A stretch of DNA of 20,000 bases from an uncultured virus (IMG/VR IMGVR_UViG_3300035188_001343) (Duplodnaviria; Heunggongvirae; Uroviricota; Caudoviricetes): IMG/VR virus record IMGVR_UViG_3300035188_001343; one strand, given 5' to 3'. Positions 1,105 to 11,728 of the stretch are shown one piece after another. The notes under the pieces were generated by a model. That model was not told the origin of the DNA. It was given only the letters and a program-made list of their open reading frames with translations, and searched no databases. A program made the translations under genes and the position numbers. Numbering within the stretch: position 1 is the first letter of the stretch; each line of letters opens with the position of its first letter.

Positions 1105-2376
1105 ATGGCTATCATTCAAGTAGTTACACAGGATCCAAACTTTGGCTTCATTATTCATAAAAATCCTGCTAGTGGAATGCAATTAAGAAGCATTAGACAG
1201 GGTACCTCTTTTGGATGGTATTCTAAAAATAATACTGTATACAACATTCTATTTAAAGACGCTGACAACGCTGTTAGTTTTGGCGATCAAGAATTTGAAT
1301 ATTTAAATACAAGCAGATATAATTCACCAGTATTTGTATTAAATGCAATAAGTGAATATTTCAACTCTACGGTAAAATCACAAAGCGAAATTGATGTCGA
1401 TGGGTTTGAAAAATCATTTTTAATTAACGCAATAGATTTAAAATCACTGTTTCAACTGTCACAATTTGAAAAATATTTTCCTGATTTTGAAATTGAGTAT
1501 GATTTATACACTGCAAAATCATTTAAATTGAAAATATCAACCAAAAAAAGTTTTCACATGTTATTCAACTATGTTAACTTATTAATGTTGTTCATAGTAT
1601 TGACTAAAGATGATGAATTTCTACAGTTAAATGATGATTCCATTGAAAAATACTTAAGTTCGATTGAACGTTTAAATGCCCCATTTTTCATAAGATATTT
1701 ATTTAGTCGAAATATGTTGCGAAATAAAAACCAATTCGAAAAATATAAACCTCGGTTAGAAAACACAACCTTATATGAATCAACTAAAATGCAATATGGT
1801 GATACGGCAACACAAAGATTTCGTGCCATCAAACAATTAGTATCATTCGATAAACCAATTTTGGATATTGGTTGTGGTGAAGGTTTTTATGCAATCCCAT
1901 TTTCAATGTTGTTAAATGATGAAATTAACTATTATGCGATTGATATTGATGAAAAATTAATCCAAACAGTTAGAAAAAAAGCAGATAAAAAGAACATTAT
2001 AAACTTAAAGGTTTATAACCACATTGATTTATTTTTAAAGAACTATGATGGGGATGTAGTTGATATTATTCTCACTGAAGTAATTGAGCATATGCCAATT
2101 TATGAAAGTAAAGAATTGATTAAAAAAATTATCAACACTGTCAATTTTAACAAATTAATCATTACTGTCCCAAACAAAGAATTTAACGAATTTTATATGA
2201 TTGGTGATGATGAATTTAGACATTACGATCACAAATGGGAACCGACTTACGACGAATTTAAAAATTTAGTTTTGACAGAAATTGATAGTCAATTTAAAAC
2301 TGATTTTATTAAAATTGGTGATACTGTAAATGATATTTCCACGAGTATCGGGTGTTTAATTACTAAATCCGTTTAA
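1105..2376 (+). CDS. hen1: Hen1-type 3'-terminal RNA ribose 2'-O-methyltransferase
   Basis: N-terminal FGFIIHKNP (Hen1 ligase-activating domain motif), SAM motif ILDIGCGEG, EVIEH and FRHYDHKWE metal-binding motifs; directly upstream of pnkp. Confidence 0.88.
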   Translation: MAIIQVVTQDPNFGFIIHKNPASGMQLRSIRQGTSFGWYSKNNTVYNILFKDADNAVSFGDQEFEYLNTSRYNSPVFVLNAISEYFNSTVKSQSEIDVDGFEKSFLINAIDLKSLFQLSQFEKYFPDFEIEYDLYTAKSFKLKISTKKSFHMLFNYVNLLMLFIVLTKDDEFLQLNDDSIEKYLSSIERLNAPFFIRYLFSRNMLRNKNQFEKYKPRLENTTLYESTKMQYGDTATQRFRAIKQLVSFDKPILDIGCGEGFYAIPFSMLLNDEINYYAIDIDEKLIQTVRKKADKKNIINLKVYNHIDLFLKNYDGDVVDIILTEVIEHMPIYESKELIKKIINTVNFNKLIITVPNKEFNEFYMIGDDEFRHYDHKWEPTYDEFKNLVLTEIDSQFKTDFIKIGDTVNDISTSIGCLITKSV

Positions 2377-2412
2377 TCAATATAGTTTACCAATCAATAC
2401 GAGGATGAAATA

Positions 2413-5088
2413 ATGAATATTATTAAAACACAGTTGCATACTATCATCATGTTAGTTGGACCAACTAATAGTGGGAAAACTACTTTTGCGAAAAATGTTT
2501 TGATTCCACAATTACATAACGCATTTGATGTTGGAAACAATTTCAAACCGAATATCCAATACATCAGTTCAGATGATATTCGCAGACAATTATTAGGTGA
2601 CATCAATATTGATAAATACAACAATATAATGACCGAAGTAAGTGAACAAGCTTTCGAATTACTGTTCACCCAACTAAATGTGTTTACAACATATCCGGTT
2701 AACGCACATTTTGTTGTTGTAGATACTACTGGATTAAGTGAGGAATTTAGAAATAAAGTAATCGACATTTCAACAAAAAATAATTATTTTATTGATGTGA
2801 TTACATTTGACTATAAAAATGTATCCGAATACAAAAAACAGTTTGTGGTTACTGGAAAAGATAGCGGTTCCACAGATGGGCGTTTAATCTCGAAACATTT
2901 GACACGGCTGCATAACGAAGTATTGAAAACCATCAAACGTGAAAAATACAAAAACATCACTCGAATCAAAGATAAAGGATTTTTACAAGAAATTTTAAAC
3001 GATGATGGAACAGTTTCATTAGAACCAACTATCAAAATTGAAGTAAAAAATGTAGAGAAATATTCCAAAAATGTTTTATCAAACGCATATGATTGGATGG
3101 TTATCGGTGATGTGCATGGTTGTATTGATGAATTACATCAACTATTAGTAAAAATAGGATTCGGTGTTATTGACAATGAATTGTTTGACACTGAAAAATC
3201 TAAAAATAAAGGTTTGATTTTTGTCGGTGATTTAGTTGATAAATCAAATGATGACGATTTAGAAAAAACCATCAGATTTATCCATAATAGTATGGACAAA
3301 TTTTCAGACAGATTTCATATGATTTTAGGAAATCATGAAGACATGGTTTACAAATGGATAACCGATGATAACTCAATAGAAAAAACGGCAGAACGATACA
3401 GACAGAAAGAAATTTACTACAACACAACATTCTTATTAGAAAAAAATGAGGAATTGAAACAACTGTTTTTTAACATTTTTTCAAAAATGAAACCATGGGT
3501 AAAAGTAAATGGAACAAAAAACAAAAGTTTTATTGTTACTCATGCACCATGCGAAACAAAATATTTAGAAAAAATGGATAAAATTTCTACAACTAAACAT
3601 TTTAAATGTTTGAGTAGATCAAAAAACAAGAATTTAACTAATGATGAGTTAACACCTTATCTTATGTTAGAAGCAGTTAATAACCACCCAACACATATTT
3701 TTGGTCATTTAGGTCAAAATAATGTGAGAACATTCAAAAACAAAGTATGTATTGATACGGGATGTGTTTATGGAAATGAATTAACTGGGTACTCAGTAAC
3801 GAACAACAAACCATACATTGTATCGGTAGGTTCGATGAAAAAACGCCCAGCATCAAACGATTTTGATAACAATCTATTCTCAGTTGTATCCAAATTTGAA
3901 AATGTTAACATTAATAGTCTCGATGAATTCAATCAGAAACGATTAAATTATATCGTTTCTAATGGTGTTGGTTATATCAGTGGTACAATTTCCCCAGCAG
4001 ATAAAGATGTTGAAACTAAAAATTTGGAATCTTTGAAATCTGGATTAAACTACTATAAAGGTAAATATGACTCTTTAATTTTAGAGCCAAAATATATGGG
4101 TTCACGGGCACATATCTACTTGAACCGAAACATTGAAAAATGTTATAGCACATCTCGAAACGGATTCAAAATAAACCGAGATTTAGGCAATTTTTATTCA
4201 GATTTGTTGAATGAATATACTCCTCTCATGGATGAATTTAATGCTGATGAAATGGTTTTAGATGGTGAATTAATGCCATGGGCTGCAATGGGTACGGGTT
4301 TGATTGATAACCAATTCAAAGTTATCGATTTGGTTTTAAAATCGGAGTTAGATTTTTTAAAAGAGAATGATTTTGATGTGGCATTCCAAAATTTAGTAGA
4401 TGTTTGGCAGGACAGCAATTTTGAAAATATCAAAAATACCATGTCAAAAAAGGATTTGAGTGAAAAGTTCAAACACAACTATGAAAATTTTAAAAATGTA
4501 AAAATAGAAGTGGATAGATTTCAGCCGATTGAAACACATTTAGACGCCTGGAGTATTTACAATTCTCAGGTGGAATTATATGGTGCTGAAGGTGCGGTAC
4601 ATTTTAAACCATTTAGAATTTTAAAACTGAAAGATAAAAATGGTATGGATATTGATATTGGTTTAGATACAGTCCAACAGTTTACCAAAATTAACAATGA
4701 TGATTTTCACATTGTCGATTTTACTAATGAAAATTACCAAGAATTAGCTGACAAATGGTATGAGAATTTAACAAAAAATAACAAAATGGAAGGATGTGTC
4801 ATCAAACCATCCACTTTAACGTTATTAAACAATGTTGCACCTTATTTAAAAGTGCGAAATCCAAAATACTTGACAATTATCTATGGTTATGATATGTACT
4901 TTCCAAAGAAATTTGAAAAATTATTTAACCAAAAAAATATAAACCGAAAAATCAAAGCATCAATTAGAGATTATAAATTCGGTGAACAAATGTTAAGTGT
5001 TGATATTTCATCTCCAGAATTTAAACAAATTGTTGCGAATTTTATGTTTGAAAGTGAAAAAGATCGAGATATTGATCCAAGATTATAA
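2413..5088 (+). CDS. pnkp: Bacterial-type Pnkp: polynucleotide kinase / metallophosphoesterase / RNA ligase
   Basis: P-loop GPTNSGKTT and SSDDIR (kinase); GDVHG, GDLVD, GNHE, FGH, IDTGCVYG (phosphoesterase); KYMGSR, LDGELMPW, MEGCVIKP, LKVR and terminal DPRL (ligase). Confidence 0.93.
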   Translation: MNIIKTQLHTIIMLVGPTNSGKTTFAKNVLIPQLHNAFDVGNNFKPNIQYISSDDIRRQLLGDINIDKYNNIMTEVSEQAFELLFTQLNVFTTYPVNAHFVVVDTTGLSEEFRNKVIDISTKNNYFIDVITFDYKNVSEYKKQFVVTGKDSGSTDGRLISKHLTRLHNEVLKTIKREKYKNITRIKDKGFLQEILNDDGTVSLEPTIKIEVKNVEKYSKNVLSNAYDWMVIGDVHGCIDELHQLLVKIGFGVIDNELFDTEKSKNKGLIFVGDLVDKSNDDDLEKTIRFIHNSMDKFSDRFHMILGNHEDMVYKWITDDNSIEKTAERYRQKEIYYNTTFLLEKNEELKQLFFNIFSKMKPWVKVNGTKNKSFIVTHAPCETKYLEKMDKISTTKHFKCLSRSKNKNLTNDELTPYLMLEAVNNHPTHIFGHLGQNNVRTFKNKVCIDTGCVYGNELTGYSVTNNKPYIVSVGSMKKRPASNDFDNNLFSVVSKFENVNINSLDEFNQKRLNYIVSNGVGYISGTISPADKDVETKNLESLKSGLNYYKGKYDSLILEPKYMGSRAHIYLNRNIEKCYSTSRNGFKINRDLGNFYSDLLNEYTPLMDEFNADEMVLDGELMPWAAMGTGLIDNQFKVIDLVLKSELDFLKENDFDVAFQNLVDVWQDSNFENIKNTMSKKDLSEKFKHNYENFKNVKIEVDRFQPIETHLDAWSIYNSQVELYGAEGAVHFKPFRILKLKDKNGMDIDIGLDTVQQFTKINNDDFHIVDFTNENYQELADKWYENLTKNNKMEGCVIKPSTLTLLNNVAPYLKVRNPKYLTIIYGYDMYFPKKFEKLFNQKNINRKIKASIRDYKFGEQMLSVDISSPEFKQIVANFMFESEKDRDIDPRL

Positions 5089-5169: not shown

Positions 5170-5793
5170 ATGAAACAATTCAATACATTAGTGTATATTG
5201 GTAGATTCCAACCATTCCACAAAGCACATTTAGAAACTATAAAAATTGCCAGCAAACAATGCAAGAATCTAATTATTATTGTAGGTTCAAACAGTGCACA
5301 TAGAACGTTGAGAAACCCATTTACATCAGATGAAAGAATCGAAATGATAAAGGGGACAATCGATGAATTTAACGAACATTGTAAAGATGACGAATCAATA
5401 AACGTCAATTTACTATATGAAACAGTGGTAGATTGTCCAGAAGATGATTCAATATGGTGTGGTAGAGTTAAAAGAGCAGTAGAAAAAGATTCATTAAATT
5501 CGGAAAATGTTGGCATTATTGGTCATGTTAAGGATGATAGTTCCTTTTACTTAAAATTGTTTCCAGAATGGGAACATGTAAATGTAGATAAAATATATGA
5601 CATTGATGCTTCAAGTATCCGAAATAGTTTATTTACCGAAAACATGAATTCACAATTGGATGATTATTTACAACATATCTCTGTGTTTACCCATGAATTT
5701 TTAAAAAGATTCACATCATCATCACATTATGAAAAATTAAATAATGAGTTTACATTATTGTTTTCAAATGAAAACTTAAAAAACAAACTATAA
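5170..5793 (+). CDS. nadM: Nicotinamide-nucleotide adenylyltransferase (NadM-type NMNAT domain, no fused Nudix)
   Basis: IGRFQPFHKAH (HxxH motif), GS...RNPFT..ER..MI, GH.KD.SS.YL..FP.W and ASSIR, typical of the NadM-Nudix N-domain. Confidence 0.88.
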   Translation: MKQFNTLVYIGRFQPFHKAHLETIKIASKQCKNLIIIVGSNSAHRTLRNPFTSDERIEMIKGTIDEFNEHCKDDESINVNLLYETVVDCPEDDSIWCGRVKRAVEKDSLNSENVGIIGHVKDDSSFYLKLFPEWEHVNVDKIYDIDASSIRNSLFTENMNSQLDDYLQHISVFTHEFLKRFTSSSHYEKLNNEFTLLFSNENLKNKL

Positions 5794-5813
5794 ACCAATC
5801 AGGATAATAGATT

Positions 5814-7106
5814 ATGTCAAATTTGATTTTAAACACCGATAGTTACAAAACGTCACACTTTTCCTTATACCCAAACAATTGTACAGGTCAATTTTCTTAT
5901 ATTGAGGCAAGAACCCCAAATAAAAAAATTGTACCGTTTGGCATCACCTTATTCATTAAAAAATATCTGTTAAACAAAATAACATTGGATGATGTTTTTG
6001 AAGCGGAAGAACTTTTAAAAAATCATGGTTTGCCTTTTAACAAAGATGGTTGGTTGAAAATTATTAACGAATATGATGGTTATTTACCACTATCAATCAA
6101 GGCGATTCCTGAAGGATCATTAGTTAATTCACTCGAACCTATTGTTACGATTGAATCTACAGATGAAGATTTATTTTGGTTGCCATCATATATTGAAACT
6201 GTGTTACAACGTGCAATATGGTTTCCAACGACAATTGCCAGTAATGATTATCAAAATTACCAAGTATTGAAAAAATACTATGAAGAAACATCAGACCACC
6301 AAGAATTACTACAGTTTGCATTACACGATTTTTCTGCAAGAGGGGTTTCATCCGAAGAAACATCAGAAATTGGTTCATTAGCCCATTTGTTATATTTTAG
6401 AGGTACTGACGCATTATCTGGGATTCTTGCAGGTAGAAAATATTACAACTGTGATATGGCTGGGTTCAGTATTCCTGCAACCGAACATTCGGTGCAATGT
6501 GCTTATGGTAATGAAAATCAAACCACCTATATTGAAGCGTGTTTAAATAATCACAACATGATTAGTATTGTCTTAGATGGTTATGATATTTTCAGAGAAA
6601 CATACACTCTATCTGAATTTAAAGACACTATTGTTGGTAATAACAAGACAGTGGTTTTGCGTCCAGATTCAGGCGATCCGTTTGTAGTATTACCACAACT
6701 GTTTACCACATTAGAAGAAAAATTTGGATATACACTAAATTCAAAAGGTTACAAAGTTTTAAACAACGTGAAAATTATTCAAGGTGATGGTATTGATTCG
6801 GATATGATTGTTAAACTGTGTGAAATGGTTAAACAATTAGGATTTTCGGCAGAAATGTTAGTTTATGGTTCTGGTGGTGGTTTAATTCAAAAAGTTAATC
6901 GGGACACATACAGTTTTGCTCAAAAAACATCTGCTATGAAAATCAATGGATTGTGGGTTGATACTGTTAAAAATCCTATTACTGATTCTGGTAAAAAATC
7001 TAAAGGTGGTTTACTTCATGACGATAGAATGATAGAGTATTATAACAATGGTAAACTACTAATAAATGAAACTCTTGATACTATCAGAAATAGATTAAGT
7101 CACTAA
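5814..7106 (+). CDS. nadV: Nicotinamide phosphoribosyltransferase (Nampt/NadV)
   Basis: TDSYKTSH, YIEAR, LHDFSARG, SIPATEHS, RPDSGDP, IQGDG, GSGGGLIQKVNRDT and KNPITD.GKKSK motifs. Confidence 0.93.
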   Translation: MSNLILNTDSYKTSHFSLYPNNCTGQFSYIEARTPNKKIVPFGITLFIKKYLLNKITLDDVFEAEELLKNHGLPFNKDGWLKIINEYDGYLPLSIKAIPEGSLVNSLEPIVTIESTDEDLFWLPSYIETVLQRAIWFPTTIASNDYQNYQVLKKYYEETSDHQELLQFALHDFSARGVSSEETSEIGSLAHLLYFRGTDALSGILAGRKYYNCDMAGFSIPATEHSVQCAYGNENQTTYIEACLNNHNMISIVLDGYDIFRETYTLSEFKDTIVGNNKTVVLRPDSGDPFVVLPQLFTTLEEKFGYTLNSKGYKVLNNVKIIQGDGIDSDMIVKLCEMVKQLGFSAEMLVYGSGGGLIQKVNRDTYSFAQKTSAMKINGLWVDTVKNPITDSGKKSKGGLLHDDRMIEYYNNGKLLINETLDTIRNRLSH

Positions 7107-7135
7107 ATTACAAACCAATTAAAAAAGGATAACCT

Positions 7136-7693
7136 ATGGATAAAGTAATATTTGAAACACCTAGTGAATTTTTAAAAATAAAATCCGCTGAAACAACTCC
7201 TTATTTTTATGTGGAACGAAAAGGTATAGATAGCGTTGCATTTATTTTATTTGATGAAAATAGAGATGAATATTTTGGTGTTACTAATGAACGCAAACCA
7301 CCAATGGATGAAAGATTTGGAGAATTAGCATTCATCGAAACTGCATTTGGTGGCAGCAACGACATTATCGATTACAGTGTGTATTCAGCAATGAATGAAA
7401 ATGAAATTGTCGAGAATATGCGAGAAATTGTTAAAATTGAGGCAAAAGAAGAAGCAGGTTACACTGTTGATTCTAAACATATTCAATTTATTTCAAAAGA
7501 ATTTGTATCTACCCAAATGAATCAATGGGTATATTTGTTTTTAGTGGATGTTTCTGGACTTTCTCAAGGAAAAACAGAGCCTCAAAATGCTACAGAAGCA
7601 ATGGCAACCGTAGTATGGAAAAATACAAAACAAGTGCAAAAAATGTCAGATTGGAAAACAAAAACTATCGTTTTTAATGTTTTGGCGGTATAA
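7136..7693 (+). CDS. Nudix hydrolase (possibly ADP-ribose pyrophosphatase)
   Basis: DSVAFIL...E.KPP...FGGS...EAKEEAGY, a Nudix box with an expanded spacer; AAGGA RBS. Confidence 0.72.
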   Translation: MDKVIFETPSEFLKIKSAETTPYFYVERKGIDSVAFILFDENRDEYFGVTNERKPPMDERFGELAFIETAFGGSNDIIDYSVYSAMNENEIVENMREIVKIEAKEEAGYTVDSKHIQFISKEFVSTQMNQWVYLFLVDVSGLSQGKTEPQNATEAMATVVWKNTKQVQKMSDWKTKTIVFNVLAV

Positions 7694-7721: not shown

Positions 7722-8546
7722 ATGAAGCAAAAACATGACAGTTTAGGTATCTTAATAAAATCATTCGAAAAATCCTATGAAAATAGAATTGACCATGATA
7801 AGTTTTTAATTGTTAGGATTGATGGTCATAAGTTTTCAAAATTTACAAAGAAATTTAAAAAACCATATGACCCATTATTATCACAATCAATGGAAAATAC
7901 TACCAAAGATTTAATTGACCATTTTGGTGCTTCTATAGGCTATACTCAATCCGATGAAATAACACTCGTTTTTCCACCTGTTTTCGACATTAAAAATGGT
8001 ATCGTTACCAACAATCAAATATTTAGCGGTAGAACACAAAAAATCGCATCGTTGATTGCATCTTTTACATCCATAAGATTCAACTATTGGATGCAACAAC
8101 TTTTTAATGATGTTTATATTCACGATGAATTTTATAAAGAATCAGTTACTAATCAGTTAGGTAATGCATGGTTTGATGCTAGAATTTTTGGTCTTTCTAC
8201 TAAAGAAGATGCCTGTAAAGTAGTATTATGGCGGTGGAGGGACGCACTTAAAAATAGCTGTAGTATGTTTTCTCAAACTTTTTGTTCACATAAAGCACTG
8301 TTAAATAAAACCGGGGTTGAACAAATAAAATATTGTTTTGAAAAAACTGGCAACGATTGGAACTTATCCCCAGATAGATTCAAATATGGAATTTTTGTAA
8401 AAAAAGAAAAATATGTTAAAAAAATTACAGAAAATATCTATACCGATTGTGACGAAATAATTAGAACGAGAATAACCACATTTACAAAAAACACTTTTTT
8501 AATGTCTGATGAAAATATTGAATTGGTGATAAGTAAATCTATTTAA
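7722..8546 (+). CDS. tRNA(His) guanylyltransferase Thg1-like protein (3'-5' nucleotide addition)
   Basis: VRIDGHKFSKFT, KPYD, YTQSDEITL, GRTQK..S, FDAR and WR.RDA.KNS motifs of the Thg1/TLP family. Confidence 0.9.
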   Translation: MKQKHDSLGILIKSFEKSYENRIDHDKFLIVRIDGHKFSKFTKKFKKPYDPLLSQSMENTTKDLIDHFGASIGYTQSDEITLVFPPVFDIKNGIVTNNQIFSGRTQKIASLIASFTSIRFNYWMQQLFNDVYIHDEFYKESVTNQLGNAWFDARIFGLSTKEDACKVVLWRWRDALKNSCSMFSQTFCSHKALLNKTGVEQIKYCFEKTGNDWNLSPDRFKYGIFVKKEKYVKKITENIYTDCDEIIRTRITTFTKNTFLMSDENIELVISKSI

Positions 8547-8910: not shown

Positions 8911-9864
8911 ATGGAAATAAACACTAAATATGGTTCAATTGACTATGAAGATATCGATGAATCGGAACTATCACCAGAAACGGTAAAATTTTTACATAAA
9001 AGAGTTAAAACTGCGGAGATGATGTTTACGGATACCATCGATCTAACCAATATTGATCCAAAATTTGATGAAATTATACAAGAATTAGGTGAAGTTTCAA
9101 TTGCTGAAAATAAATTTACAGAAGCTTCTAGGGCATTTGCTTTAGCAGAATTCATCGATGCACCATTATCTGATATTGAAGAAGAAAATGTAACTTCATT
9201 TCATGGTGCAGGTGGAGAATACAAAGTATTAACAGATGCAGAAGCCGATGAAGAAGCTTTGGATCATGCAAAATCAATTATCGATGATATTGGTATTGAT
9301 GGATTGAATGATTATATGAAAGAGTATATTTACGACAATTTTGTATCTACAGAGTGGTTTGATGAAGTAATGAATGAAATGAACGTATCGACCGCCGAGG
9401 ATTTAAAATTGGAGGATGCTGATTCAGTCGAATACATAAATCGGTTGCATGAAGAAATGGTTGAAGCGGGTATTATGGATGAACCAGAATGGCCTGATGA
9501 AGATGATTTTATTACTGGCGATGATGGATTAACTCCCGAAGATGAAGAAAAATTTAATCAAGCACACGACGAATACGTCGAAAGTTTAGAAAAAGAAATT
9601 GATGACAATTTCGATTTATTTGTAGAGAAAAAAAATGAGGAATATGATTCAGGAATTGAATACTATAAAGATAATTTTGGTCAGGATGAATTAAATAACG
9701 TAATCACACGTCACAATTTAGTTAATGAAGATAAAGCAGCAGAATATGTTGTCAGTGAAGGTGACAGAGGTGAATTTTTAGCTTATTATGATAGTGAAGA
9801 AAATAATATAACAATAACTTTTAAAAAGGAAAAATACGATTATTACATTTATCGAACTGGGTAA
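8911..9864 (+). CDS. Highly acidic hypothetical phage protein
   Basis: 317-aa ORF, GAGG RBS, extremely Asp/Glu-rich, followed by a terminator. Confidence 0.8.
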   Translation: MEINTKYGSIDYEDIDESELSPETVKFLHKRVKTAEMMFTDTIDLTNIDPKFDEIIQELGEVSIAENKFTEASRAFALAEFIDAPLSDIEEENVTSFHGAGGEYKVLTDAEADEEALDHAKSIIDDIGIDGLNDYMKEYIYDNFVSTEWFDEVMNEMNVSTAEDLKLEDADSVEYINRLHEEMVEAGIMDEPEWPDEDDFITGDDGLTPEDEEKFNQAHDEYVESLEKEIDDNFDLFVEKKNEEYDSGIEYYKDNFGQDELNNVITRHNLVNEDKAAEYVVSEGDRGEFLAYYDSEENNITITFKKEKYDYYIYRTG

Positions 9865-9880: not shown

Positions 9881-9914
9881 AAAAAAAGGATTGAATGTGT
9901 TCAATCCTTTTTTT
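9881..9914 (+). terminator. Rho-independent terminator (potentially bidirectional)
   Basis: AAAAAAAGGATTGAA-TGTG-TTCAATCCTTTTTTT perfect inverted repeat. Confidence 0.85.
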
Positions 9915-9955: not shown

Positions 9956-9966
9956 ATGGTATAATT
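9956..9966 (+). promoter_or_regulatory. Extended -10 promoter (TGnTATAAT) for the split RNA ligase genes
   Basis: ATGGTATAATT about 35 nt upstream of ATG 10001; the same 11-mer occurs on the - strand at 19734-19744. Confidence 0.65.
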
Positions 9967-10000: not shown

Positions 10001-10282
10001 ATGTTACCAACATATAACGATGTAAAAATAATTTGTGCGAACAACGAATCATTTAAAATAAAACACCAGACTTTTGGTAATACAACTGTTGCACAATGCA
10101 CCTATTTCTTAGCATCAACAGGGGATTTTTTTCCAACAGTAATAGAATTAGAAGAAAATGGAAAAACAATTTCTGTTTACGGTGATGTAGAATTTAATGG
10201 TACAAAATTAAAAAACATGACAGATACAGAGATTGAAATTATAGGGTTTGATACCCTTTCCCAATTTGCTTTTGGTCAATAA
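10001..10282 (+). CDS. Rnl1-like RNA ligase, fragment 1 (N-terminal ~44 aa plus ~49-aa extra tail)
   Basis: YNDVKIIC...F.......TY.LAS.GDF parallels the T4 Rnl1 N-terminus (FNNLMELC...FSYNYASYSDW); sits directly upstream of the fragment starting with ELRG. Confidence 0.6.
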   Translation: MLPTYNDVKIICANNESFKIKHQTFGNTTVAQCTYFLASTGDFFPTVIELEENGKTISVYGDVEFNGTKLKNMTDTEIEIIGFDTLSQFAFGQ

Positions 10283-10297
10283 CAGGGGATACTAAAA

Positions 10298-11140
10298 ATG
10301 AAAATAACACGAAAAGTTGGTAATCTTTGTGAGTTAAGAGGCGTAACTTTTGTAAAAGAAGGCAATGGTGAATGGGTCCGTCATCTTTTTATGAGCAAAT
10401 TTTTTAACATCAACCAAACTAATGGTTTAGATGCAACGCATATGGATTTGAATATCAATGGGGTAACAACTAAAGTAAACATCAATAAATTGTATTTAAC
10501 TACCGATGAAAAAACATACCGAGCAATAGATTTAAAAGTTGGTATGACTGTAGGCGAATTTGATAAAGCCAACAACACAGTTATCGGTAATTTTTTCACT
10601 ATTGAAACTTTAGAAAAAACAGTTTTACCACCTGAAAATCGAGAAAATTCATGGATGCATGATGACGTAAAACACCTTGATGTTATGCGAGTGGCAAATA
10701 AAGAAGATGGTTCAGCGATCAGATTTCTTTTAATTGATGGGGTTTTAGTGGCAAAAACTAAATTTTCATTTGAATCCGACCAAACAGTTTTATCTATGCA
10801 AGTAGTCAATAATGATTCAAATTTAAAAAAATTCATACTAAAAACGTTAGAGTTAAATCTAACAGCGTTGTTTGAATTAGTTTCACCATTAAACAAAATC
10901 GTACTTTCCTATAATGAAACCGATTTAAAACTGTTGCAATTGCGTGATTCAAACGGTGAGTATCTTGACATCTACAATCACCCATTAGTTCTCGAACATA
11001 ATATTCACACTACAAATCAAGAGTCGCTTGACTTATTGAATGAAGTATCGGAAAAATTTACAATCTCCGAAGTTAGAGAAAAATTGGGAAATTTAAAATT
11101 TAACTCATTACAAGAATTTTTAGTTTTTTTAAAAAACTGA
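10298..11140 (+). CDS. Rnl1-like RNA ligase, fragment 2 (motifs I-IIIa)
   Basis: ELRG, KFFN, KEDGS (motif I adenylated Lys), KTK, FELVSPLNKIVLSY and LLQLRD..GEY as in T4 Rnl1; own RBS GGGGA. Confidence 0.88.
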   Translation: MKITRKVGNLCELRGVTFVKEGNGEWVRHLFMSKFFNINQTNGLDATHMDLNINGVTTKVNINKLYLTTDEKTYRAIDLKVGMTVGEFDKANNTVIGNFFTIETLEKTVLPPENRENSWMHDDVKHLDVMRVANKEDGSAIRFLLIDGVLVAKTKFSFESDQTVLSMQVVNNDSNLKKFILKTLELNLTALFELVSPLNKIVLSYNETDLKLLQLRDSNGEYLDIYNHPLVLEHNIHTTNQESLDLLNEVSEKFTISEVREKLGNLKFNSLQEFLVFLKN

Positions 11141-11165
11141 TAACTTAATTTACCAAGGAAAACTT

Positions 11166-11696
11166 ATGAATGTATTAGAACTATTAATGTTGTCTGGTGA
11201 ATATATTGAAAATAAAGAAGGGGTAGTTATCACTTTTTCTAATGGTAAAATGGCAAAACAAAAACACCAACAATATATGTTATTACATGGAATTTTATCA
11301 GATGGTTTAAAAGAACATAACTTAATCGTTAGAATTCTGAATGAAACTATCGATGATGTGATTTCCTTTTTACCTGAATCGGCAATCGAAGAACGTGAAT
11401 TTGTGAATGCATTAACAGAATGTGTTATCAACCACGTTAATAAAACTGCTGAAGAAGGTTTTGAATTTTTTAATAAAAATTATAATGGTGATCGAAAAGA
11501 ATTTGCGATAAATCATAAAAATCATAAATTATTCGGTCATATGACTATGTTGTTTCGAGAAAATAGCATCGAAACTATTGAAAAATCTATCATTTCCAGA
11601 ATGTTAGTAGATTGTTATCGTTATGAAGCAGCAAAAACATATTTGCGAAAAATAGGTTTTGAACGAGAATTAAAATTGTTGGAAAATGATGATTAA
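11166..11696 (+). CDS. Rnl1-like RNA ligase, fragment 3 (motifs IV, V and helical C-domain)
   Basis: ENKEGVVI (motif IV), KQK..Y..LH (motif V), I..ETIDD and DRKEFA as in the Rnl1 C-domain; own RBS AAGGA; different frame from fragment 2. Confidence 0.85.
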   Translation: MNVLELLMLSGEYIENKEGVVITFSNGKMAKQKHQQYMLLHGILSDGLKEHNLIVRILNETIDDVISFLPESAIEEREFVNALTECVINHVNKTAEEGFEFFNKNYNGDRKEFAINHKNHKLFGHMTMLFRENSIETIEKSIISRMLVDCYRYEAAKTYLRKIGFERELKLLENDD

Positions 11697-11701
11697 TCAC
11701 C

Positions 11702-11728
11702 ATAAAGACCGGATAATCCGGTCTTTAT
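11702..11728. terminator. Hairpin terminator between convergent genes
   Basis: ATAAAGACCGGA-TAA-TCCGGTCTTTAT perfect inverted repeat. Confidence 0.8.

Follow-up and report, generated by a model that had tools for sequence, protein, structure and literature searches.

A T4 Rnl1-type RNA ligase gene carried as three cistrons in an uncultured freshwater phage, probably through two short mobile inserts

The record IMGVR_UViG_3300035188_001343 of IMG/VR belongs to an uncultured virus (Duplodnaviria; Heunggongvirae; Uroviricota; Caudoviricetes), and the 20,000 nucleotides of it that were analyzed here, referred to as the window, contain three consecutive plus-strand open reading frames (ORFs) that together carry the motif set of T4 RNA ligase 1 (Rnl1). 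A first-pass annotation, made from the sequence alone, had described this locus as one RNA ligase encoded as three separate polypeptides that reassemble non-covalently. The following describes the locus, its relatives in public data, the two inserts that interrupt the gene, and the readings that this evidence allows.

Results

The ligase locus and its family

The three ORFs were found exactly as first described (Table 1). The motifs ELRG, KFFN, KEDGS and FELVSP lie in ORF2, and EG and KxK lie in ORF3, so the division of the active site noted in the first-pass annotation, with the lysine to be adenylated on one ORF and motifs IV and V on the next, is present in the reading frames themselves. 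The claim that each piece has a ribosome-binding site and start of its own is borne out by Shine-Dalgarno (SD)-like sequences ahead of ORF2 and ORF3.

Table 1. Features of the ligase region of the window (positions count from the first letter of the window; a model is the AlphaFold2 (AF2) prediction; aa, amino acids; nt, nucleotides).
Feature	Position	Strand	Remarks
Upstream terminator-like hairpin	9881..9914	+	15 pairs and a T run; scores on the minus strand too; ends the preceding gene (8911-9864); the ligase unit begins here
TGgTATAAT, extended -10-like element 5' of ORF1	9957..9965	+	seen by eye only; absent from the consensus-scan output
ORF1	10001-10282	+	93 aa, stop TAA
ORF1 residues 1-44, ligase N-terminal segment (helix and beta hairpin), ending DFF	10001..10132	+	alignment to unbroken relatives; AF2 model
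Tail 1, 49 insert-encoded residues at the ORF1 C-terminus, with the TAA stop	10133..10282	+	missing in unbroken relatives
Junction 1, 15-nt spacer	10283..10297	+	SD-like AGGGGA at 10284-10289; read from the sequence
ORF2	10298-11140	+	280 aa, TGA then TAA
Head 1, insert-encoded ORF2 start MKITRKVGNLC	10298..10330	+	in place of the loop of unbroken forms
ORF2 core up to QESL	10331..11029	+	ELRG, KFFN, ~75-aa beta-rich insert, KEDGS, AKTKFS, FELVSP
Motif I lysine, K135 of KEDGS	10700-10702	+	in ORF2
Tail 2, 36 insert-encoded residues at the ORF2 C-terminus (..EVREKLGNLKFNSLQEFLVFLKN), with TGA TAA	11030..11143	+	
Junction 2, rest of the 25-nt spacer	11144..11165	+	SD-like AAGGAA at 11155-11160; read from the sequence
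ORF3	11166-11696	+	176 aa; head 2 (MNVLELLMLSGEYI), motifs IV and V, helical C-terminal domain
Motif IV EG, ORF3 residues 18-19	11217-11222	+	
Motif V KxK, ORF3 K31/K33	11256-11264	+	
Downstream terminator-like hairpin	11702..11728	+	3' of ORF3, between convergent genes

Two of the three pieces are recognized by ligase profiles on their own. ORF2 (E 1.4e-23) covers positions 54-197 of the profile PHROG 562 (RNA ligase and tail fibre attachment catalyst) and ORF3 (E 2e-20) positions 225-365; ORF2 also matches the Pfam family RNA_lig_T4_1 (2.3e-11), with T4_Rnl1_C on ORF3 at 1.4e-4 (22.6 bits, under the curated cut-off of 27). ORF1 alone has no Pfam or PHROG family match; its residues 1-44 align to the N-terminus of relatives in which the gene is unbroken. 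Searched as a profile, these unbroken relatives match T4 Rnl1 (2c5u) over residues 6-369 (1.4e-52), and the AF2 model of one of them, from the locus L007, has a predicted local distance difference test (pLDDT) score of 91 and T4 Rnl1 as its best match in the PDB (8e-20); residues 323-450 of the model are helical, as expected of the all-helical C-terminal domain. GenBank phages gave no DNA match to the window, and the protein matches among them were distant T4-like ligases only.

The family profile aligns the motif set of the window to that of T4 Rnl1. The covalent nucleotidyltransferase motifs I (KxDGS), IIIa (FE), IV (EG) and V (KxK) are collinear over ORF2 and ORF3 and invariant in 38 family sequences, as are the Rnl1-specific residues E57, R59, G60 and K79 ahead of motif I, which align to ECRG and KFFN of 2c5u and are essential in T4 Rnl1. 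The statement that the catalytic motifs look intact holds across relatives as well, with K135, DGS and E193 invariant in 19/19 ORF2-type proteins and EG and KxK in 19/19 ORF3-type proteins. T4 Rnl1 (gp63; 2c5u, 5tt6, 9do4) shares the family, the motif set and, for the unbroken relatives, the fold, and differs in being a single chain of 374 aa that lacks the ~75-aa insert after KFFN as well as the tails and heads described below. Judged by its sequence, the window gene is Rnl1-type in all but its single-chain form, being three ORFs with stops and starts of their own.

Relatives of the three pieces

A search with ORF2 returned 58 proteins, and as lengths of 154-490 aa were searched, the 514-aa protein of locus L013 could not appear among them. 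Architectures were counted in 42 close-family proteins, leaving out P0043-P0058 (fragments or distant); alignment A5 does not include P0085-P0088, whose lengths are odd (111-260 aa). With split sites written S and fused sites F, site 1 (between ORF1 and ORF2) given first and site 2 (between ORF2 and ORF3) second, 8/42 are SS, the form of the window, 11/42 are FS (split at site 2 only, ~326 aa), a single protein is SF (1/42; P0017, 421 aa) and 22/42 are FF (unbroken, ~464 aa). A fifth form is found in L013 and L016, each a single ORF with a continuous in-frame insert of ~50 residues made up of the site-2 tail, a linker and an ORF3-type head. At least five forms therefore co-circulate: unbroken, broken at site 1, broken at site 2, broken at both, and unbroken with the in-frame site-2 insert. 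Stand-alone pieces were also recovered, with ORF1-type proteins of 93-95 aa in 7 clusters, the window's included, and 23 ORF3-type proteins at E ≤0.001; the 19 of the latter that were aligned are 173-186 aa long, 11/19 being exactly 176.

DNA scans gave 15 loci, duplicates among them. The first IMG/VR scan, with ORF2 alone, had no match, and those with the ORF3 alignment recovered the L002 contig once more and nothing else, with no match in genome contigs. Besides the window, complete three-piece loci are L002 (=L008), L004 (=L005) and L006, and the L006 type also occurs as a partial copy, L014. The gene is unbroken in L003 (=L012), L015, L007, L010 and L011, and L009 is cut off before site 2. 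In all four complete split loci, ORF1, ORF2 and ORF3 are adjacent and in order, and no further stops or frameshifts were found in them. Lineages that share both break points are 50-76% identical, and the conservation of break points among related phages that the first-pass annotation had proposed to look for is seen in the recurrence of the same two sites, with conserved tails, heads and piece lengths. As a separate observation, the unbroken 497-aa ligase of L011 (313-1806) has an extra insert of ~30 residues in its C-terminal domain.

Both breaks recur in independent assemblies

At least part of the stretch is present in 21 public runs from 20 studies, labelled as lake water or freshwater metagenomes; none of the 22 public runs listed is an RNA run. 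Four runs (X3-X6), none of them among the two flagged as a possible source of the window, were compared as Logan contigs, not raw reads, at a depth of 2-6. Site 1 is bridged by gapless contigs with 0 differences in three of the four (X4, X5, X6) and site 2 in all four, and each exact window protein was seen on 3 contigs, the longest of 227,833 bases. The mapping over the break points that had been suggested at the outset thus returns both breaks with 0 differences in independent contigs. An artefact of assembly or sequencing, for which one could point to the metagenome-derived contig of the window and to the low depth of the comparison contigs, is hardly conceivable because contigs from runs not flagged as a source carry both breaks unchanged and because the diverged loci L002, L004 and L006 show the same architecture.

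Anatomy of the two inserts

The short insert at each break brings a conserved C-terminal tail with its stop, followed by an SD sequence, a start and a conserved N-terminal head. At site 1, ..DFF and ELRG are joined in unbroken forms by a 12-residue loop (DAHKDGSMVRAT); split forms have in its place a 49-residue ORF1 tail and then an ORF2 start of the form M.ITR..GN[LF], common to 9/9 site-1-split proteins (8 of them aligned). Across 10 ORF1-type sequences, tail 1 is invariant at 15 positions, and its AF2 model (residues 50-90 of ORF1; pLDDT 87-91) predicts a hairpin and two short helices; for the fold of ORF1 and tail 1, Foldseek gave no match in the PDB at E ≤0.001, and the best score in the ESM Atlas was 0.88, below the useful range. 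The sister genes at site 2 are the same as far as QE.L and diverge directly after it. The tail there (~36 residues, ..E.R.KLG..KFNSLEEFL..L..) is conserved in 19/19 site-2-split proteins, and the alignment of 19 ORF3-type proteins gives the restart as MN.LELL.LS.E.IENKEG. Homology between tail 1 and tail 2, suspected by eye, was rejected, as the hhalign probability of 1.5% is no better than that of 20 column shuffles.

Placed on the L007 model, site 1 is the loop at residues 45-54, and site 2 follows L289 and precedes helix 292-301 and the motif IV strand 307-312; both cuts are predicted to fall between secondary-structure elements, in surface loops. The distances between the pieces vary across the four complete loci, from a 4-nt overlap (L002) through 4 and 15 (window) to 38 nt at site 1, and with 10, 14, 25 (window) and 945 nt at site 2. 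The overlapping ORF1 and ORF2 of L002 are in different frames and those of L004 and L006 stand in other frames again, so the relation in the window, where both are in one frame with a single TAA between them, is not kept in relatives.

The inserts are mobile

In a maximum-likelihood phylogeny built on the shared core (45 rows), the architectures are scattered. Placing the 11 FS rows takes 11 changes, of which no fewer than 10 are imposed by branches with good support; for the 8 SS rows it takes 6, no fewer than 4 being imposed in this way. Architecture labels are no more clustered than shuffled ones (17 changes vs a shuffled mean of 17.9), and architecture varies within six sister groups that have good support (P0025/P0037, P0015/P0035, P0023/P0033, P0030/P0036, P0009 vs P0020-21, and P0005/P0006). 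In the first of these, P0025 and P0083, which were joined solely because the longest contig is 7,778 bases for both, together match P0037 nearly residue for residue except for a local block at site 2, which extends from ~15 residues before the insert to ~35 after it. Five further sister pairs have the same pattern, and such divergence in a local block is what co-conversion during homing produces (PMC2988022). The host gene is thus contiguous in close relatives, its split is polymorphic and its flanks are diverged, as in described 'genes in pieces'. The inserts, which the first-pass annotation had missed as the cause of both breaks, are mobile, present or absent among near-identical relatives with flanks that are locally diverged.

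A candidate agent is present in one relative. Exactly between the ORF2 and ORF3 equivalents of L002 lies a 276-aa ORF that matches PHROG 314, homing endonuclease (8.2e-26), and Pfam SegE_GIY-YIG (4.9e-5; 24.0 bits vs a cut-off of 25), with tblastn matches to annotated GIY-YIG endonucleases of T4-like phages, among them weak matches to a GIY-YIG endonuclease of Aeromonas phage 25. The window is an endonuclease-free form of the same split. Because 8/9 site-1 splits are also split at site 2, the site-1 insert may travel with that of site 2. In L002 (4730-4788), a TGaTATAAT element follows the endonuclease stop just 5' of the ORF3 equivalent, and the distal piece may receive a promoter from this insert.

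Selection on the pieces

The calculation of the ratio of nonsynonymous to synonymous substitution rates (dN/dS) for each fragment, proposed with the first-pass annotation, was carried out pairwise by the Nei-Gojobori method (NG86) among the window, L002, L004 and L006. Synonymous divergence is saturated (dS >1 or undefined), and where it is defined the values are 0.19-0.22 for ORF1 (3/6 pairs), 0.14-0.24 for ORF2 (2/6 pairs) and 0.13-0.30 for ORF3 (3/6 pairs). The tails are looser than the cores, at 0.33-0.59 for tail 1 and 0.18-0.87 for tail 2. Since the conserved tails and heads exist only in insert-bearing states, selection acts on those states too, and the pieces are under purifying selection, which makes decay unlikely.

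Discussion

A ligase that probably reassembles from three chains

In the reading that we consider most likely, with a probability of about 0.68, this is one Rnl1-type ligase gene that two short mobile inserts of the homing-endonuclease 'genes in pieces' kind have divided into three cistrons, and whose chains would reassemble non-covalently; the inserts are observed, and assembly and activity are inferred from the conservation of the pieces. The three chains would be translated separately, as the differing frame relations and spacers among the four complete loci support, and from one transcript. ORF2, with Lys135 and motifs I-IIIa, and ORF3, with motifs IV and V, would together form the nucleotide pocket. 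Each tail is proposed to pair with its head and so to hold the junction together, because L013 and L016 join tail 2, linker and head 2 in frame. The role of the enzyme would likely be the repair of tRNA or other RNA breaks alongside the products of the neighboring Hen1, Pnkp and Thg1-like genes. There is precedent in phage enzymes split by endonucleases, the pieces of which reassemble (PMC2988022, section 17).

Several observations weigh against this reading. No endonuclease gene is present at either window junction, with their spacers of 15 and 25 nt; among the four complete three-piece loci such a gene is found in only one (L002, at site 2), and no ORF was seen at the site-1 junction in any of the four. 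The four split loci show no increase in third-codon-position identity near motifs IV and V, and hence no sign of recent DNA transfer among them. On the order of events at site 2, in-frame insert or split first, a quick tree places L013 basally and L016 within an unbroken clade. The dN/dS values are rough, dS being saturated, and since the inserts move, part of the divergence may have arisen in an unbroken state. Unbroken alleles co-circulate, so the split is without evident benefit, and given that the phage also encodes a Pnkp with a ligase domain of its own (PNKP_ligase, 8.1e-29), the split ligase might be dispensable. The single promoter and single terminator of the first-pass annotation stand in part, in that terminator-like hairpins flank the ligase unit with none inside the region in the hairpin scan; the promoter is plausible but unsupported by the consensus scan, which is at chance level (11 sites found vs 12.5 expected).

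The second ligase domain, 5 kb upstream, also bears on whether the pieces persist without still being one ligase, with Pnkp sealing RNA and one or two fragments having taken another role, such as RNA binding by the C-terminal domain of ORF3 or tail-fibre attachment like the second activity ascribed to T4 gp63. The name of PHROG 562 includes tail fibre attachment, the convergent neighbor is a virion-protein-like gene, and the existence of single-break forms means that the modules are separable. This is nonetheless unlikely in our estimate, as the ligase-specific residues do not vary on either side of site 2, which is hard to explain unless the shared active site is still in use, and the three ORFs remain adjacent and in order wherever a complete split locus was found. 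A ligase inactivated by the inserts and now decaying would account for stops within a gene that is single-chain in T4 and in 22/42 close relatives, in an enzyme possibly redundant with Pnkp. Such a pseudogene is quite improbable given that both break points, the tails, the heads, the starts and the piece lengths recur in lineages that are only 50-76% identical, that dN/dS is 0.13-0.30, albeit with saturated dS, and that the complete split loci have all motifs intact with no additional frameshift or stop.

Restoration of a single chain would remove the need for reassembly, through recoding (readthrough of the site-1 TAA, with a +1 shift or bypass at site 2), RNA splicing or protein trans-splicing. 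The window's ORF1 and ORF2 do share a frame with one TAA between them, the in-frame passage of L013 and L016 through the site-2 insert is compatible with one chain, and in T4 gene 60 the ribosome bypasses an endonuclease-linked insert. Unlike gene 60, the window family has no conserved recoding relation, as frames and spacers differ in each of the four complete loci; in addition, ORF2 ends in two stops, TGA TAA, and every piece has its own SD sequence and start. Against splicing, no Rfam intron at E ≤0.1 and no other RNA family was found at the junctions of the window, L002, L004 and L006, and the spacers are 4-38 nt except in L002. Against an intein, there is no Hint or intein Pfam match, the first residue of tail 1 is an invariant proline, and tail 1 and head 1 together have ~59 residues, far under the intein minimum of about 130 aa. 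Programmed recoding, a self-splicing intron and an intein were each rejected as candidates, the features that define them being absent from the junctions, and we regard a restored single chain as very improbable.

Comparison with known split genes

The divided, reassembling ligase favored here belongs to a known phenomenon, 'genes in pieces', and the first-pass remark that the architecture was not a described one has to be narrowed: split phage enzymes that reassemble are known (PMC2988022), as is a two-piece split RnlA, and it is the three-piece form that is new. One of the closest cases is Acinetobacter phage 133 (NC_015250), where, as in the window, an Rnl1-family ligase lies in separate cistrons, annotated 'split RnlA RNA ligase 1 and tail fiber attachment catalyst', with extra junction residues on each piece. 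Its rnlA-A (112 aa; 133966-134304) and rnlA-B (132227-133192) are separated by the 273-aa ORF Acj133p227 (133179-134000), which has no Pfam match. Phage 133 has two pieces vs the three of the window, the split is known from annotation only, and the break falls between KFFN and the lysine motif, unlike either window site, in the place that the ~75-aa insert occupies. That insert, beta-rich and lying between KFFN and the lysine motif (window 10400-10640, ORF2 residues ~40-115; ~88-160 in the L007 model), is missing from T4 Rnl1, L001 and P0050.

Splits of other host genes are similar in kind. In Aeromonas phage Aeh1 the homing endonuclease mobE sits in a functionally critical region of nrdA, and nrdA-a and nrdA-b give separately translated chains that reassemble and are active (PMC2988022, section 17). 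The split is of the type proposed for the window, made by a free-standing endonuclease; Aeh1 differs in its host gene, in a single break and in an HNH endonuclease that is still present, whereas the window has two breaks, no endonuclease and conserved tails and heads. Gene 43 offers a parallel for the endonuclease-free state, as Aeromonas phage 44RR has intercistronic untranslated sequence without an endonuclease between 43A and 43B and phage 25 has seg43(25) (PMC2988022), a GIY-YIG endonuclease at the same junction in a relative. The gene 43 pieces co-purify and are active, and the order of events there is uncertain; the host is a DNA polymerase with one break, and the sections of PMC2988022 available describe no population-wide co-circulation of architectures. 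T4 gene 39 and gene 60 with mobA are likewise a conserved enzyme gene split by insertion of an endonuclease (PMC2988022). In literature that for the most part did not cover subscription journals, no paper on a split Rnl1 was found, nor a description, for any ligase, of a pocket assembled from two chains.

Beyond these cases, the present family adds a three-piece form broken at two further sites, junctions free of endonuclease, conserved tails and heads encoded by the inserts, an in-frame version of the site-2 insert, and at least five architectures among near-identical genes. If the reassembled ligase is active, it would be a covalent nucleotidyltransferase with a pocket from two chains, the lysine on one and motifs IV and V on the other, together with a third chain. 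The alleles form a natural experiment, as unbroken, one-break, two-break and in-frame versions that are ≥90% identical outside the inserts can be compared directly, and they show selfish endonuclease cassettes reshaping RNA-repair genes in uncultured freshwater giant phages.

Tails and heads as possible adaptors

A more speculative idea, which we hold tentatively and think less likely than its failure, is that the tails and heads are not scars but portable, self-associating adaptors that let a selfish insert cut a loop without killing the enzyme. It fits the occurrence of tail 2, linker and head 2 as one in-frame insert of ~50 residues in L013 and L016, the confident prediction of tail 1 as a mini-domain of 49 residues that matches nothing in the PDB, and the presence of the tail-1 module at the same site in distant Rnl1 lineages and once on a RecT fragment. 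The last of these comes from a search of 1.84 billion representatives with a tail-1 profile, which gave 9 proteins at E ≤0.001. P0092, P0093 and P0095 are ORF1-type pieces of distant Rnl1 lineages, with N-terminal parts 27-30% and tails 33-43% identical to those of the window. P0090 is an N-terminal fragment of RecT (Pfam RecT 1.1e-10) whose last 30 residues are identical to those of the L004-type tail, and it could come from a chimeric contig or be another gene that this insert has split. Four other matches, long and repetitive, look spurious. If the idea is right, the tails and heads would be natural docking tags for split proteins, spread by homing, and the conserved peptides may serve as such tags in engineered split enzymes.

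Genomic surroundings of the ligase

The surroundings are those of a large phage, with ribonucleotide reductase, dCMP deaminase, a LamG-type virion protein, and genes for RNA repair and NAD salvage. An RNA-repair island lies 5' of the ligase (window 1105-5088 and 7722-8546) and comprises Hen1 (Hen1_N 5.3e-70, and a methyltransferase), a Thg1-like tRNA-His guanylyltransferase (3.5e-30) and the Pnkp, which has kinase and phosphatase domains besides its ligase domain, so that the phage has two RNA ligases. The NAD salvage set (window 5170-7693) consists of a cytidylyl/adenylyltransferase-like gene, a nicotinamide phosphoribosyltransferase (PHROG 448, 5.5e-132) and a weak Nudix match.

On the 3' side of the ligase, L003 (5082-6581) has a Ro60-like TROVE-domain protein (TROVE 5.9e-16), and a similar ORF starts there in L015, L007, L004 and L014; the window has no TROVE-domain gene in this place and carries the convergent virion-protein gene instead. 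A transfer-messenger RNA gene lies near the ligase locus in L004 (4709-5088, minus strand; 99 bits, full model), and L002 has a match to the same RNA at 6547-6840 (plus strand; 39.9 bits, cut at the 3' end). Finally, the gene at window 8911-9864 encodes an acidic 317-aa protein without a family match, a counterpart of which lies directly 5' of the ligase in L003, L004, L006, L007, L009, L011 and L015, in every case with the ending ..F[YF]IY[RK]...

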